DNA from: a virus
Taxonomy: Duplodnaviria; Heunggongvirae; Uroviricota; Caudoviricetes
IMG/VR virus record: IMGVR_UViG_2529292829_000014
Length of the DNA: 7,279 bases
Direction: 5' to 3' (one strand)
The notes under the pieces were generated by a model, which saw only the letters and a program-made list of their open reading frames with translations, was not told the DNA's origin and searched no databases. This document shows, piece after piece, positions 1 through 5,964 of the stretch (positions within the stretch are counted from its first letter, which is position 1; each line of letters begins with the position of its first letter). The position numbers and the translations under genes were made by a program.

Positions 1-378
1 TTATTTCGAACAATCAGCATCCATCTCCAATCGGAGATCCAACACCATCAGCATGCCCTCCACTACGCCCTCAGCTTTCTGGAGCATCCTGCCAACCCAA
101 CAATCAGATCGCCCATGCTTACGTGCAAGCGCCATAAAAGTCATGCCGCCGACATAATAGTCCACCAATAAATCATGTAAATCGCTGTTGTTTTTTTTCA
201 GGCGAGCCATACATTCACAAATGATCATCGCGTCATCGTCACAGCATTGCGGACGAGATCTTACTTTTGAAGGAATTAATCCCTTAAAACCGGCGGCAAT
301 GGACGACCAGGTCACATCTTCATGATTATTAGCCGCCCATGCCCCCCAACGCTCAAGAACCATCTGAATATCACGCAT
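1..378 (-). CDS. Phage late antitermination protein Q (short Q type, QuuD-like), 125 aa
   Basis: Translation [26 protein letters not shown]...[17 protein letters not shown]... recognised from memory as the short Q antiterminator family. ATG at 376..378 is preceded by GGAG 7 nt upstream on the minus strand; the ORF track's 393 start is an upstream in-frame GTG. TAA stop at 1..3. Lies directly downstream of the ydfU-like gene as in Qin/DLP12-type prophages. Confidence 0.7.
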
Positions 379-395
379 CAACTTACTCCACAAAA

Positions 396-1445
396 TTAGG
401 CCAGCACACCAATTGCCAGCGCGCGATCGATAAATCGAAAAATCAGCTCCAGTTGGGAGCCATACTTCTCTTCAAATGCCACGGTATCCGTATGCAACTC
501 GTCGTGATGCTTTCTGCACAAAGGCAACACAAAGAGATCATGTGCTTTGGTTCCCATTCCGCCCTGCCCGTGACCAATCAGATGATGCGGATCGTCGGCT
601 GGCATACCGCAGCAAGCACACGGCTGTGTCTTAACCCAGCGTGTGTATTTCTCCTTAACCCAACGGTGACGTTTAGGCAGCTTCATGAAAGATTCCGGAG
701 ACTCTGGATCAACGGTGATGCTTACCACCGTCTTTTCCTGTGATGGGTTTTGTTGCTGGTGGGCGTGAGGCAACGGTGCAAGATTTTTTGTGCGCTGTTT
801 CAATATGCTGGTGGCGGTCTGCTCTCCCGGTACGATGTCGCTTTCGCGGTACACCGAGCAGTTTTTTTCCGCTGGTAATCCCAGCGAGCGACGTAATACC
901 GCTTCCGGTAGCGCGTCCGCCACCTGATTGCGGACCGCCCACCAGGATAATTCAGCCAGAGATAATTCACGCTCCTGCGTACCGCTTATTGCGTGACCGA
1001 TGACGTCAATCATCCATGCTGACAGGTTTTGATGAGCAAGTTGCTCGAGTGATTCGGATGTCTGGTCACGCAGCTGGTTGTCGCAGTGCCAGCACAACAC
1101 CATTGCGCCGGTACCATAACGGTGAATAACGGTTTCGCTGTGATGATAATCGCCGAGTGGCCACTGGCAGGATTTAATATGGCGCAACAGCCAGTCAGAC
1201 AATGCACCAGCACCACCAGCAGCACGAATTACCCGTGCGTTACTGAAAAACGGCAGCAATGTTTTGTCTTCCACCAGCGGCTGGCGAACGGCAGGAACGA
1301 CCCCGGACGGCAGATTACGCATGCTTTTCGGTTCCGGCTCCACCAGTACCCGGGTATTGTGGAATACCGGCATGGATTCACGGCCCGGCTTAACGACCAC
1401 CAGCCCGAGTTCCGGTACCAGAACAGGTCGAAGTAATACCCGCAC
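396..1445 (-). CDS. ydfU: DUF968/YdfU-like prophage protein with C-terminal Cys/His (HNH-like) metal-binding cluster, 349 aa
   Basis: 349-aa ORF with GTG start at 1445 preceded by GGAGG (minus-strand mRNA ...GGAGGUAAC GUG). C-terminal motif CACCG...HHLIGHG...CRKHHDELH. Same length and position (just upstream of Q) as YdfU of the Qin prophage; family assignment is from memory. Confidence 0.6.
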
Positions 1446-1661
1446 GTTACCTCCAGATGCGTTGCTGGAATGTACGGGACGGACTCGGTGGGCGTTCGGA
1501 GTAAGGCAATCTGACTGAGATTATCCAGTGACGGTATGTGGCGTGTTCCCCAACCAGGACGGTACGTTCACCGCGATGACATATACCAAAAGCAAAACGT
1601 TTAAAACCGAATCTGGCGCGCGTTGCTGGTTAGCCAGAAACACTGACTGATGAGGCTGACG

Positions 1662-2027
1662 ATGGAATTTAAAGATTTACCGTCTGATGTACAGAAAACA
1701 GCAGCTCATACATTGCATTCTGTGCTGCGAGAAATCGGGAAAGATATTGCAAGCGAGCCAGCAAAAGATCTGGCCCGGAAAATCAAGACCGCTTTCGTTG
1801 AGCTTTATAATGTTGGCACTGACTCTGAAACTGTCGAGACCAAGACCGTAAGTTCACCAATATTCTCACTTGAGCCAGGCGTATTATCAGGTGAAATATG
1901 CACCGAGATTTCCAGCGAACTGCTTCCGGTAATACGAGAAGCAATTTGCCGTCGCGGTTTGGATGGAAGTTACGATCATGACGTCCTGCAAGTTCTCAGG
2001 ACAATGGTGACTTCACTGGGGATTTGA
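1662..2027 (+). CDS. Hypothetical protein, 121 aa, mildly acidic, no recognisable domain
   Basis: ORF with GAGG 6 nt upstream of ATG at 1662 (an in-frame ATG at 1650 lacks an SD). No transmembrane segment or HTH recognised. Its 3' end overlaps the convergent minus-strand gene by 32 bp (1996..2027). Confidence 0.45.
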   Translation: MEFKDLPSDVQKTAAHTLHSVLREIGKDIASEPAKDLARKIKTAFVELYNVGTDSETVETKTVSSPIFSLEPGVLSGEICTEISSELLPVIREAICRRGLDGSYDHDVLQVLRTMVTSLGI

Positions 2028-2196
2028 TCCCTGCGTCCTCTAACCTTTTGATATAGCGGTCCTCCAAGAAGCGGTAAATTTTGTCGAAATCATCTTTCCC
2101 CTCTGGTTTATTCAGAGGATTACAGGACCCGTAAGTAGCGGCATACATTTTAACCGTTTTATCAAAAATATAAGAGACAAATTCTTCTTTAGTCAT
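1996..2196 (-). CDS. Hypothetical small protein, 66 aa (MTKEEFVSYIFDKTVKMYAATYGSCNPLNKPEG...), moron-like
   Basis: ATG at 2194..2196 (minus strand) preceded by a strong SD (mRNA ...AAGGAAAUCUAU AUG). The coding region looks visibly AT-richer than its neighbours by eye (not computed). Opposite orientation to the flanking operon. The 95-aa ORF-track version is an upstream GTG extension that would swallow the SD. Confidence 0.5.
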   Translation of the reverse strand: MTKEEFVSYIFDKTVKMYAATYGSCNPLNKPEGKDDFDKIYRFLEDRYIKRLEDAGIKSPVKSPLS

Positions 2197-2276
2197 ATAG
2201 ATTTCCTTCTTGGTTATTCGGGATAAGAAGGATACCACCTCGCCTGACGTGGTTAAAAGCAGGCACACAACACGAA

Positions 2277-2471: not shown

Positions 2472-2529
2472 TTTCTGGTGACGTTTGGCGGTATCAGTTT
2501 TACTCCGTGACTGCTCTGCCGCCGTTTTT
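2472..2529 (+). ncRNA. dicF: DicF small regulatory RNA (prophage-encoded antisense inhibitor of ftsZ translation)
   Basis: Sequence TTTCTGGTGACGTTTGGCGGTATCAGTTTTACTCCGTGACTGCTCTGCCGCC followed by a T5 tract matches my memory of the 53-nt E. coli DicF RNA almost base for base. It sits immediately upstream of a 62-aa dicB-like ORF, as in the Qin dicB operon. Confidence 0.8.
2487..2529 (+). terminator. Rho-independent terminator forming the DicF 3' end
   Basis: Stem GGCGGTA (2487..2493) pairs with 2517..2523 (ending CCGCC), with an inner CAGT/ACTG helix, followed by G plus TTTTT (2525..2529). No A-tract precedes it, so it is oriented for the plus strand. Confidence 0.55.
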
Positions 2530-2698: not shown

Positions 2699-2887
2699 AT
2701 GAAAACGTTATTACCAAACGTTAATACGTCTGAAGGTTGTTTTGAAATTGGTGTCACTATCAGTAACCCTGTATTTACTGAAGATGCCATTAACAAGAGA
2801 AAACAAGAACGGGAGCTATTAAATAAAATATGCATTGTTTCAATGCTGGCTCGTTTACGTCTGATGCCAAAAGGATGTGCACAATGA
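2699..2887 (+). CDS. dicB: DicB-like cell-division inhibitor, 62 aa
   Basis: ATG at 2699 preceded by GAGGA 7 nt upstream. 62 aa, the length of Qin DicB, and located directly downstream of dicF. The ORF-track 97-aa version starts at an upstream GTG without an SD. Confidence 0.7.
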   Translation: MKTLLPNVNTSEGCFEIGVTISNPVFTEDAINKRKQERELLNKICIVSMLARLRLMPKGCAQ

Positions 2888-3075
2888 ATTCAGCATTTGC
2901 GCTTGTTCTGACAGTTTTTCTTGTTTCCGGAGAGCCAGTTGATATTGCAGTCAGTGTTCACAAGACAATGCAGGAGTGTATGACTGCAGCAACCGAACAG
3001 AAAATTCCCGGTAACTGTTACCCGGTCGATAAAGTTATTCACCAGGATAATATCGAAATCCCGGCAGGTCTTTAA
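2884..3075 (+). CDS. ydfD: YdfD-like small membrane protein (lysis protein on overexpression), 63 aa
   Basis: ATGA start/stop overlap with dicB at 2884..2887 (translational coupling). N-terminal hydrophobic segment AFALVLTVFLVSG. 63 aa, the length and position of Qin YdfD. The ORF-track 81-aa version is an in-frame upstream extension. Confidence 0.65.
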   Translation: MNSAFALVLTVFLVSGEPVDIAVSVHKTMQECMTAATEQKIPGNCYPVDKVIHQDNIEIPAGL

Positions 3076-3168: not shown

Positions 3169-5640
3169 ATGAGTAAAGTCTTTATTTGCGCCGCTATTCC
3201 TGACGAACTGGCAACAAGGGAAGAAGGCGCTGTGGCTGTAGCCACAGCCATTGAAGCTGGCGACGAACGCCGTGCTCGAGCAAAATTTCACTGGCAGTTC
3301 CTGGAACATTATCCGGCTGCTCAGGACTGCGCTTATAAATTTATTGTCTGCGAGGATAAACCTGGCATACCCCGCCCTGCCCTCGATTCATGGGATGCTG
3401 AATATATGCAGGAAAACCGCTGGGATGAGGAGTCTGCTTCTTTTGTCCCGGTTGAGACTAAATCCGATCCGATGAACGTCACTTTTGACAAGCTGGCCCC
3501 TGAAGTACAGAACGCTGTCATGGTTAAGTTCGACACATGTGAAAACATCACCGTTGATATGGTTATTAGCGCACAGGAATTGTTGCAGGAAGACATGGCA
3601 ACATTCGACGGACATATCGTTGAAGCGTTGATGAAAATGCCAGAAGTTAACGCCATGTTTCCGGAGCTTAAGTTGCACGCCATTGGGTGGGTTAAGCATA
3701 AATGTATTCCTGGTGCTAAATGGCCCGAAATTCAGGCAGAGATGCGCATCTGGAAAAAACGTCGCGAAGGTGAACGCAAGGAAACCGGAAAATACACGTC
3801 TGTTGTTGATCTCGCCCGCACCAGAGCCAATCAACAGTACACTGAAAATTCAACAGGAAAAATCAGCCCGGTCATTGCTGCCATTCATCGCGAATACAAG
3901 CAGACATGGAAAACACTGGATGACGAACTGGCCTACGCTCTCTGGCCTGGTGATGTGGTTGCCGGAAACATTGACGGCAGCATCCATCGCTGGGCAAAAA
4001 AAGAAGTTATCGACAACGACCGCGAAGACTGGAAGCGTATCTCGGCATCAATGCGCAAACAGCCTGATGCCCTTCGCTACGCCCGCCAAACTATTTTTGG
4101 CCTTGTCCGTGAGCGTCCGATCGACATTCACAAAGATCCCGTAGCACTGAACAAATATATCTGCGAATACCTGACGACAAAGGGCGTGTTTGAGAATGAA
4201 GAAACAGACCTGGGCACTGTTGATGTTCTCCAGTCATCAGAAACACAAACTGATGCAGTGGAAACTGAGGTATCTGATATCCCAAAAAATGAAACCGCGC
4301 CGGAAGCTGAACCATCTGTAGAGCGTGAGGGGCCGTTCTATTTCCTCTTCGCAGATAAGGACGGAGAAAAATACGGTCGCGCAAACAAACTTTCTGGTCT
4401 GGATAAGGCACTGGCTGCTGGCGCCACTGAAATCACAAAAGAAGAATATTTTGCCCGAAAAAATGGCACATACACGGGCTTACCGCAAAATGTAGATACC
4501 GCTGAAGATTCAGAACAACCAGAACCGATAAAAGTTACCGCTGACGAAGTAAACAAAATTATGCAGGCAGCCAATATCAGCCAGCCTGACGCCGATAAGT
4601 TGCTTGCTGCATCACGTGGTGAATTTGTTGAAGGGATTAGTGACCCGAATGATCCGAAATGGGTTAAGGGGATCCAGACCCGCGATTCTGTGAACCAGAA
4701 CCAGCATGAATCGGAACGGAACTACCAAAAAGCGGAACAAAACAGCCCAAATGCGTTACAAAACGAGCCAGAAACGAAACAGCCTGAACCAGTGGCGCAA
4801 CAGGAAGTGGAAAAAGTCTGCACCGCCTGCGGTCAGACCGGCGGCGGCAACTGCCCTGATTGTGGCGCGGTGATGGGCGACGCAACATACCAGGAAACAT
4901 TCGATGAAGAGTATCAGGTTGAAGTTCAGGAAGATGATCCGGAGGAAATGGAAGGCGCTGAACATCCACACAAGGAGAACACTGGCGGCAATCAGCATCA
5001 CAATAGCGATAATGAAACTGGCGAGACGGCAGATCACTCAATTAAGGTGAACGGTCATCACGAAATCACATCCACCAGCAGGACGTGTGACCATCTAATG
5101 ATCGACCTTGAAACCATGGGAAAAAATCCTGATGCCCCGATCATCTCAATAGGTGCAATATTTTTCGATCCGCAAACCGGAGATATGGGACCGGAATTTA
5201 GTAAGACTATCGATCTGGAAACTGCTGGCGGAGTCATTGATCGGGACACCATTAAATGGTGGCTTAAGCAATCACGCGAAGCGCAATCTGCCATTATGAC
5301 CGATGAAATCCCGTTAGATGATGCACTGTTACAATTGCGGGAATTTATCGACGAAAACTCCGGTGAATTTTTTGTTCAGGTTTGGGGAAATGGAGCCAAC
5401 TTCGACAACACGATTTTGCGCCGTTCATACGAACGGCAGGGGATCCCCTGCCCGTGGCGTTACTACAACGATCGCGATGTACGCACAATCGTTGAGCTGG
5501 GGAAAGCCATAGACTTCGATGCCAGAACGGCTATTCCATTCGAAGGTGAGCGCCATAATGCACTTGATGACGCCCGTTACCAGGCAAAATACGTTTCAGT
5601 TATCTGGCAAAAACTGATCCCGAGTCAGGCTGATTCTTAA
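3169..5640 (+). CDS. RecE-like (annotated elsewhere as exodeoxyribonuclease VIII-like) multidomain protein, 823 aa, with C-terminal DnaQ-like DEDDh 3'-5' exonuclease domain
   Basis: Long ORF with GAGG upstream of ATG at 3169. C-terminal 180 aa (from 5098) carry Exo I MIDLET, Exo II GNGANFD and Exo III HNALDDARYQAKY motifs. Middle region is acidic and low-complexity with a CxxC-x7-CxxC zinc ribbon (CTACGQTGGGNCPDCG, 4819..4863). Sits in the exo/recE slot upstream of xis-int; it may be the intact counterpart of the IS-truncated ydfE of K-12 Qin (inference). Confidence 0.8.
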   Translation: MSKVFICAAIPDELATREEGAVAVATAIEAGDERRARAKFHWQFLEHYPAAQDCAYKFIVCEDKPGIPRPALDSWDAEYMQENRWDEESASFVPVETKSDPMNVTFDKLAPEVQNAVMVKFDTCENITVDMVISAQELLQEDMATFDGHIVEALMKMPEVNAMFPELKLHAIGWVKHKCIPGAKWPEIQAEMRIWKKRREGERKETGKYTSVVDLARTRANQQYTENSTGKISPVIAAIHREYKQTWKTLDDELAYALWPGDVVAGNIDGSIHRWAKKEVIDNDREDWKRISASMRKQPDALRYARQTIFGLVRERPIDIHKDPVALNKYICEYLTTKGVFENEETDLGTVDVLQSSETQTDAVETEVSDIPKNETAPEAEPSVEREGPFYFLFADKDGEKYGRANKLSGLDKALAAGATEITKEEYFARKNGTYTGLPQNVDTAEDSEQPEPIKVTADEVNKIMQAANISQPDADKLLAASRGEFVEGISDPNDPKWVKGIQTRDSVNQNQHESERNYQKAEQNSPNALQNEPETKQPEPVAQQEVEKVCTACGQTGGGNCPDCGAVMGDATYQETFDEEYQVEVQEDDPEEMEGAEHPHKENTGGNQHHNSDNETGETADHSIKVNGHHEITSTSRTCDHLMIDLETMGKNPDAPIISIGAIFFDPQTGDMGPEFSKTIDLETAGGVIDRDTIKWWLKQSREAQSAIMTDEIPLDDALLQLREFIDENSGEFFVQVWGNGANFDNTILRRSYERQGIPCPWRYYNDRDVRTIVELGKAIDFDARTAIPFEGERHNALDDARYQAKYVSVIWQKLIPSQADS

Positions 5641-5712: not shown

Positions 5713-5964
5713 ATGAGCGAAGTAATCATGATTGTCTCTCCCGGCAAATGGGTATCCGAAGAGCAGTTAATTGCGCTGAAAGGAATAAAAAAAGGTACGT
5801 TAAAAAAGGCCCGGGAAAAATCGTTTATGGAAGGAAGGGAATATAAGCATGTCGCTCATGACGGTATGCCATGGGATAACAGTCCATGCTTTTACAACCT
5901 GGAAGAAATTGATCGCTGGATTGAGCGCCAGGCATCAGCGAGACCAAGACGTCATCTTACTTGA
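5713..5964 (+). CDS. Excisionase-like protein (lambdoid prophage Xis-like, DUF1233 type), 83 aa
   Basis: Small ORF immediately upstream of the integrase. The sequence ...KWVSEEQLIALKGIKKGTLKKAREKSFMEGREYKHVAHDGMPW... resembles the excisionase-like proteins found upstream of int in E. coli lambdoid prophages (from memory). Start could instead be the ATG at 5728. Confidence 0.6.
   Translation: MSEVIMIVSPGKWVSEEQLIALKGIKKGTLKKAREKSFMEGREYKHVAHDGMPWDNSPCFYNLEEIDRWIERQASARPRRHLT

Follow-up and report, generated by a model that had tools for sequence, protein, structure and literature searches.

A convergent, 3'-overlapping gene pair as a candidate mobile cassette in the dicBF operon of a Qin-type Escherichia coli prophage

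The stretch of DNA analysed here (the window, 7,279 nt in full, from IMG/VR virus record IMGVR_UViG_2529292829_000014) is the left arm of a Qin-type lambdoid cryptic prophage of Escherichia coli, as identified from its open reading frame (ORF) listing, Pfam and Rfam. It carries two small genes, here called orf121 and orf66 after the lengths of their products in amino acids (aa), which converge and overlap at their 3' ends. The question raised by this locus is whether the two genes form a functional unit and, if so, of what kind. An initial annotation, made from the sequence alone, had reported the 121-aa ORF on the plus strand, the 66-aa ORF on the minus strand and the 32-bp overlap between them, and had proposed a toxin-antitoxin, defence or anti-defence module. 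All of these elements are present and the observation was confirmed; its interpretation is partly supported. The explanation that we favour, and to which we give about an even chance, is a mobile convergent two-gene cassette that is promoter-proximal in the DicA-repressed, pL-like dicBF operon of Qin/mEp460-type prophages, with orf66 in the slot that sieB occupies elsewhere. In this reading orf66 is a small protein, probably made by the prophage, whose partner domain is early-lytic and has been transferred along with it.

Position of the pair in the dicBF operon

The pair had been placed in the slot where Qin carries rem, hokD and relBE. This placement was wrong: synteny with E. coli K-12, E. 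coli B REL606 and the functional phage mEp460_ev081 puts it downstream of ydfA, inside the dicBF operon. The operon neighbours are recognisable on the same strand by Pfam, Rfam and synteny, with ydfA upstream and the gene of the small RNA (sRNA) DicF, dicB and ydfD downstream. The last two genes belong to the operon that holds orf121 and are annotated alike in identical genomes; positions 1400-2600 share 100% identity with E. coli O68:H12 strain 97.3 and five other genomes. In K-12 the dicBF operon is transcribed from dicBp upstream of ydfA and is repressed by DicA (PMC10448788 / bioRxiv 10.1101/2023.04.14.536235; PMC5069750).

The K-12 Qin operon (ydfA-ydfB-ydfC-dicF-dicB-ydfD) shares with the window the flanks, namely ydfA, the DicF precursor region, dicB and ydfD. 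Between them, homology runs through ydfA to about 1650 and restarts at about 2256-2311, upstream of DicF. K-12 has ydfB and ydfC there, both in the sense orientation, whereas in the window about 0.6 kb is replaced by orf121 in sense and orf66 in antisense orientation. Judged from these alignments, the orf121/orf66 pair is a mosaic cassette of about 0.6 kb, allelic to K-12 ydfB-ydfC, between ydfA and DicF. The same cassette occurs in REL606, where both genes are called by the NCBI Prokaryotic Genome Annotation Pipeline (PGAP), and in mEp460_ev081, where orf66 is likewise annotated; in both, a dicA-like repressor precedes a full-length ydfA. The order in REL606 is DUF968 - rem - hokD - queH - replication genes - cro-like - dicA-like repressor - ydfA - orf121 <-> orf66 - dicB - ydfD. 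In mEp460_ev081 a repressor, a cro-like gene and ydfA stand between ydfU and the pair, giving the same layout near the repressor. The cassette was present in 392 of 5,426 complete E. coli genomes (about 7%).

The pair adjoins ydfU in the window because of a deletion of about 5.3 kb relative to REL606, which joins the gene upstream of ydfU to codon ~12 of ydfA, with a junction at about 1530-1534 at a GGTA microhomology. In the alignment with REL606, the match on the ydfU side stops at ...CCAGTGACGGTA and that on the ydfA side begins with GGTATGTGGCG. Lost are rem, hokD and the replication genes, both regulator genes (cro-like and dicA-like), the first ~12 codons of ydfA and the promoter region before them, which in K-12 holds dicBp. 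Compared with K-12 Qin, dicA/dicC, this promoter region and the start of ydfA are gone. What is left of ydfA matches DUF1391 (E 4.6e-21) over profile positions 12-47 only, and by tblastn ydfA residues 13-50. The junction is rare (6 of the 5,426 genomes). Since dicA/dicC, the promoter region and the start of ydfA are deleted, orf121, DicF and dicB have probably lost their promoter in this strain, and only orf66 appears from the sequence to retain its own upstream region.

Two small genes with orphan products

orf66, which starts with an ATG at 2196 and stops at 1996, lies antisense to the dicBF operon. Its product belongs to the family of WP_000159335.1 (phrog_34441). Down to 52% identity its relatives are 65-66 aa long, apart from the most distant one with 73 aa, and the N-terminus MT[KN]EEFV.YIFDKTV is invariant in the aligned 65-66-aa members. 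Pairwise ratios of non-synonymous to synonymous substitution rates (dN/dS) are 0.08-0.3, with dS above 1 for distant pairs. The strong Shine-Dalgarno (SD) sequence reported for orf66 was found as AAGGAA (2208-2203), conserved in relatives and separated from the ATG by a 6-nt spacer (2202-2197). A spurious antisense ORF was ruled out by the dN/dS values, the conserved length and the conserved SD. The gene is also AT-richer, as had been noted, with a GC fraction of 0.403 against 0.472 for the window; that of dicB is lower still (0.36).

An exhaustive profile search of 1.84 billion representatives gave only 10 relatives of orf66 with E<1e-10. The AlphaFold2 (AF2) model of its product is an amphipathic hairpin of two helices (residues 3-21 and 31-54) that has a flexible tail and lacks a transmembrane segment, at a mean predicted local distance difference test (pLDDT) score of 75.5. 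Together with a grand average of hydropathy (GRAVY) of -0.69, this model suggests a soluble helical-hairpin protein. Comparison of the model with the folds in PDB and BFVD yielded nothing informative.

Natural disruptions of orf66 were seen among the retrieved loci, which carry relatives of orf66 or of parts of orf121 and are given L-numbers here. IS1 interrupts the gene in independent contigs (L070 at ~4034, L071 at ~5050, L072 at ~2005), at codon ~16 or codon ~22, and L072 has a second copy, of the K-12 type ydfA-ydfB-ydfC-dicB, beyond the IS1. In L094/L097 (~4116-4453) a deletion of ~363 bp takes codons 1-51 of orf66 and its upstream element and leaves orf121 and dicB intact.

A conserved element upstream of orf66 was delimited by alignment of seven lineages. 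It contains an inverted repeat, GCCTG (2264-2260) and CAGGC (2246-2242), which follows the pattern GCCTG-N13-14-CAGGC across lineages. After the repeat comes the motif GGTGGTATCCTT (2239-2228, minus strand), which reads as an extended -10 (TGnTATCCT) and takes the form GGTG[AG]TA[CT]CCTT in all lineages. All 125 occurrences of this motif in 2.2 Mb of retrieved loci precede an orf66 ATG by 30-37 nt. The ~200 nt from the element to DicF (2256-2472) are nearly identical to K-12, and the mosaic boundary with K-12 falls inside or beside the element.

orf121, whose product would reach 125 aa from an upstream in-frame ATG (1650), consists of three fused parts, a common N-domain (~52 aa), a disordered linker and a C-domain (~47 aa). 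Its AF2 model (mean pLDDT 58.8) shows two small helical hairpins joined by the linker; the helices of the N-domain span residues 8-25 and 32-50 (pLDDT 70-79), and residues 53-82 score below 50. GRAVY is -0.04. The N-domain has a dN/dS of ~0.1-0.3, and the linker evolves near neutrally, with dN similar to dS. The C-domain is constrained at long range: dN/dS is 0.14 between L004 and L005, and in comparisons with L006 dS is saturated at a dN of 0.2-0.26. Its relatives were recovered by BLASTP between the window and L006 (2e-20), between L004 and L006 (4e-11) and between the window and L004 (5e-7); a word-indexed search started from the C-domain alignment had no hits.

The N-terminal ~55 residues match PHROGs 9419, 1363, 2151 and 6937, and the N-domain is found with several unrelated C-termini. 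Matches are also encoded in Stx2a-phage DNA, and in BFVD the orf121 model matched only uncharacterised proteins of 50-52 aa, at the N-domain, one of them from phage phi191. A weak resemblance of residues 10-40 (1689-1781) to helix alpha-2 of the archaeal histone HMfB, with a common stretch that contains ...GKDIASEPAKDLAR against GRDIASEAIKLAR, was sub-threshold (NCBIfam E 0.047; PDB 1a7w E 0.1) and is probably coincidental. In Serratia, Enterobacter and a metagenome contig (L137 3501-4014, L139 3501-4134, L136 3489-3969), N-domain proteins with unrelated C-termini are overlapped at the 3' end of their genes by unrelated convergent ORFs of 81 aa, 72 aa (phrog_21180) and 76 aa (uncalled), respectively; the position behind the N-domain may serve small antisense genes as a general slot. 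A similarity between the 81-aa and the 76-aa ORF was considered and is not supported.

Both genes are thus under purifying selection, which agrees with the earlier view of two real genes, and both are members of tiny orphan families. Neither protein was assigned to a characterised family, as had been stated: searches of Pfam, NCBIfam and PADLOC 2.0 gave zero matches for either, with no homology to toxins, antitoxins or defence proteins, and the PHROG families matched by the pair (33007 and 34441) are of 'unknown function'. A literature search with the RefSeq accessions of the two proteins found no papers.

Each stop codon lies inside the other gene, so that the 32 bp of 1996-2027 are dual-coding; orf66 ends in ...SPVKSPLS antisense to the end of orf121, ...VTSLGI. 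In the E. coli-type lineages the 10 codons of the overlap show zero synonymous changes and a non-synonymous change in only one lineage (L067), and the overlap is mostly conserved at the nucleotide level even in L004 and L006. The hairpin GTCCTG/CAGGAC reported over the overlap is indeed present (1983-2002), but is at chance level and not conserved. Two perfect 6-bp hairpins were observed in 1446-2220 against 1.6 +/- 1.6 in shuffled sequences, the fold z-score of the region is -1.1 on the plus strand, and terminator prediction gave neither a T-run nor a terminator call. The stem is limited to near-identical lineages and missing in the divergent relatives L004, L005, L006 and L134. A role as terminator or regulator was therefore rejected.

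Co-inheritance and the competing explanations

A convergent C-domain was present in 128 of the 128 retrieved loci with a full-length orf66, the window included, so the pair is kept across related prophages. The C-domain occurs in three settings: fused to the N-domain as in the window (L008 and L009), fused to an unrelated N-terminus (L004 and L005), and as a standalone gene with its own SD and ATG in Cedecea (L006/L007). The order is repressor -> partner <-> orf66 in the first two settings and cro -> C-domain <-> orf66 -> cII-like in the third. In all three, the C-domain gene is sense and promoter-proximal in an early operon, orf66 is antisense and overlaps its 3' end, and the locus adjoins the prophage repressor region. 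The operon is of the pL type in most lineages and of the pR type in Cedecea. In L004 and L134 the partner is immediately preceded by a promoter that resembles pL and has operator repeats. The promoter of L134 reads TTGACA-17-TAATAT and is flanked by such repeats; the first gene behind it, of 63 aa, converges on P0044, the most distant relative of orf66, and overlaps it. In L006 (3568-3897, minus strand) the standalone C-domain ORF lacks the usual stop and stays open for 55 more codons, a potential extension to 109 aa antisense through the entire orf66.

The position of orf66 resembles that of sieB, a gene antisense in the pL early-left operon, convergent with the promoter-proximal genes and abutting or overlapping their 3' end. 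In the annotated record of lambda, N, the first gene from pL, and the convergent sieB abut with 0-bp spacing. The annotated record of Rac reads racR - ydaG - ydaF (DUF1391) <-> sieB - kilS sRNA - kilR, with a 4-bp overlap. Its order of repressor, DUF1391 gene, antisense gene, sRNA and division inhibitor is that of the cassette locus, dicA-like repressor - ydfA (DUF1391) - orf121 <-> orf66 - DicF sRNA - dicB. In P22, sieB is an exclusion gene expressed by the prophage (PMC10883804). SieB is, however, a membrane protein of ~160-190 aa, and the 66-aa orf66 product is predicted to be soluble and helical; unlike sieB, orf66 has a co-transferred partner domain on the other strand.

In the sieB-slot explanation, orf121 would be made only on derepression of the operon, from dicBp together with ydfA, DicF and dicB, and in the repressed prophage orf66 would depend for its transcription on the conserved element upstream of it. 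With transcription converging and the operon transcript covering all of orf66 in antisense, one expression state would preclude the other. The two helical-hairpin products could plausibly interact, one as a factor of the prophage state and the other as its counter-factor in early lytic growth, much like an exclusion gene that comes with self-immunity.

Several points weigh against this explanation. The independent contexts with a homologous C-domain number just three; homology of the 63-aa partner in L134 to the C-domain was considered and is not detectable. Co-inheritance may partly be explained by the physical overlap alone, and either partner has been lost naturally, orf66 by deletion (L094/L097) and the C-domain by frameshift (L020/L132). 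The likeness to sieB is positional only, with no detectable similarity between orf66 and Rac SieB (hhalign probability 0.39%). No canonical sigma-70 -35/-10 promoter was found upstream of orf66 in any lineage, and the -10-like motif, which matches at just 4 of 6 positions, could alternatively be an operator or an element of the 5' untranslated region.

If correct, the sieB-slot explanation would add a compact new case of self-immune prophage exclusion and an extra antisense layer in dicBF control; if not, the pair is one more set of small orphan prophage genes. The cassette is carried by the E. coli B strains BL21(DE3) and REL606 and by mEp460_ev081, a functional temperate phage of the gut, and is immediately followed by DicF and dicB, the control of which is a subject of current study. 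A test would be inexpensive, as both alleles are available in laboratory strains, the cassette in B and ydfB-ydfC in K-12.

Among the alternatives, we regard it as unlikely that the two are functionally unrelated accessory genes joined only by their 3' overlap, orf121 being an ordinary early-left gene and orf66 an independent moron. The N-domain proteins of L137, L139 and L136, which face unrelated convergent ORFs, suggest such a general insertion slot, and the non-homologous partner in L134 and the loss of either gene alone agree with it. Against it, the shared unit extends ~110 nt past the 32-bp overlap and includes the whole C-domain, the mosaic boundaries lie upstream of the C-domain in all three contexts, the standalone C-domain of L006 has its own SD and ATG, and the C-domain is under purifying selection.

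A toxin-antitoxin or defence/anti-defence pair, in which one product inhibits growth or phage, the other neutralises it and the antisense overlap adds control at the RNA level, is rather doubtful. It would fit the pairing, conserved with fixed polarity in several contexts, and a location beside the immunity region, where lambdoid phages keep rexAB and sieB; on the models, two small helical hairpins could also form a heterodimer. The layout further recalls known loci with 3'-overlapping convergent genes. Type I toxin-antitoxin loci with convergent, 3'-overlapping transcripts occur in prophages, as txpA/RatA and bsrG/SR4 of B. subtilis and ralR/RalA of Rac, and in pore-forming colicin operons the immunity gene is on the opposite strand. 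The colicin likeness is architectural only, in that a small, presumably constitutive gene converges on an inducible one whose C-terminal part varies; unlike colicin operons, the locus shows no homology to them and no secretion or lysis genes, and its scale is tiny (a 47-aa domain).

Neither class of toxin-antitoxin system fits in detail. The genes of type II systems are co-directional and co-transcribed and encode known folds or families with a DNA-binding antitoxin, whereas here they converge on opposite strands and match nothing in Pfam, NCBIfam, PADLOC or PDB/BFVD except the orphans of the N-domain. Type I systems combine a small hydrophobic membrane toxin with a non-coding antisense RNA, whereas here neither product is hydrophobic or membrane-like and both strands code for proteins under purifying selection. 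The lack of any toxin, antitoxin or defence model match or structural match, and of co-transcription, speaks likewise against a toxin-antitoxin or defence pair. Natural variants in which orf66 is deleted (L094, L097) or disrupted by IS1 (L070-L072), or the C-domain is frameshifted (L020, L132), would argue against a simple addictive pair, but the operon is normally repressed, which makes such tolerance uninformative.

A two-component function is possible nevertheless, given the conserved pairing and polarity. Its more specific form would be an undescribed two-protein switch, with orf66 as a prophage-state effector of the exclusion, abortive-infection or toxin-like kind and the convergent early-lytic C-domain as its neutraliser; we consider this improbable, about on a par with a toxin-antitoxin pair. 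In such a switch, convergent transcription would enforce exclusive expression, and the cassette would swap between pL and pR operons and fuse to other small early proteins.

That the functional element is instead RNA, a minus-strand transcript or the hairpin acting as antisense regulator or terminator of the dicBF operon with orf66 incidental, is very improbable: orf66 is wholly antisense to the operon transcript, the overlap is unusually conserved in nucleotides, and a transcript of orf66, after which no terminator was found, would run into orf121, but orf66 is constrained as a protein (dN/dS, length and SD) and the hairpin is at chance level.

Features of the window and of related loci

The features are collected in Table 1.

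Table 1. Coordinates of genes and sequence elements in the window
Feature	Position	Strand	Remarks
Q antiterminator	1-393	-	
ydfU / DUF968	396-1445	-	
Remnant of small gene upstream of ydfU	1446-1534	-	ends at deletion junction; PGAP partial pseudogene in identical genome
ydfA (DUF1391), 5'-truncated	1528-1650	+	Pfam DUF1391, tblastn
orf121	1662-2027	+	121 aa
orf121 N-domain	1662-1817	+	residues 1-52, predicted helical hairpin
orf121 linker	1818-1883	+	residues 53-74, predicted disordered
orf121 C-domain	1884-2027	+	residues 75-121, co-occurs with orf66
Hairpin	GTCCTG 1983-1988 / CAGGAC 1997-2002		6-bp stem, 8-nt loop; straddles orf66 stop
orf66	1996-2196	-	66 aa
Conserved orf66 upstream element	2197-2264	-	alignment of seven lineages
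DicF sRNA gene	2473-2524	+	Rfam RF00039, 72.5 bits, full length
dicB	2699-2887	+	Pfam DicB E 1.9e-40
ydfD	2884-3075	+	Pfam DUF1482 E 2.4e-26
Exonuclease	3169-5640	+	823 aa
Excisionase	5713-5964	+	
Integrase	5984-end	+	

The exonuclease gene is intact and its product has a C-terminal Rv2179c-like 3'-5' exoribonuclease domain; the K-12 counterpart, ydfE, is a pseudogene interrupted by IS2. Among the retrieved loci, a TumE-like gene followed by an HVO_A0114-like helix-turn-helix gene stands beside the replication region in Cedecea (L006 1050-1704) and Serratia (L137 676-1324). Near-identical E. coli-type prophage contigs (L013, L014, L015) were found in metagenome-assembled genomes named Veillonella parvula, 'Proteobacteria bacterium' and Geobacteraceae, where they are probably binning contaminants.

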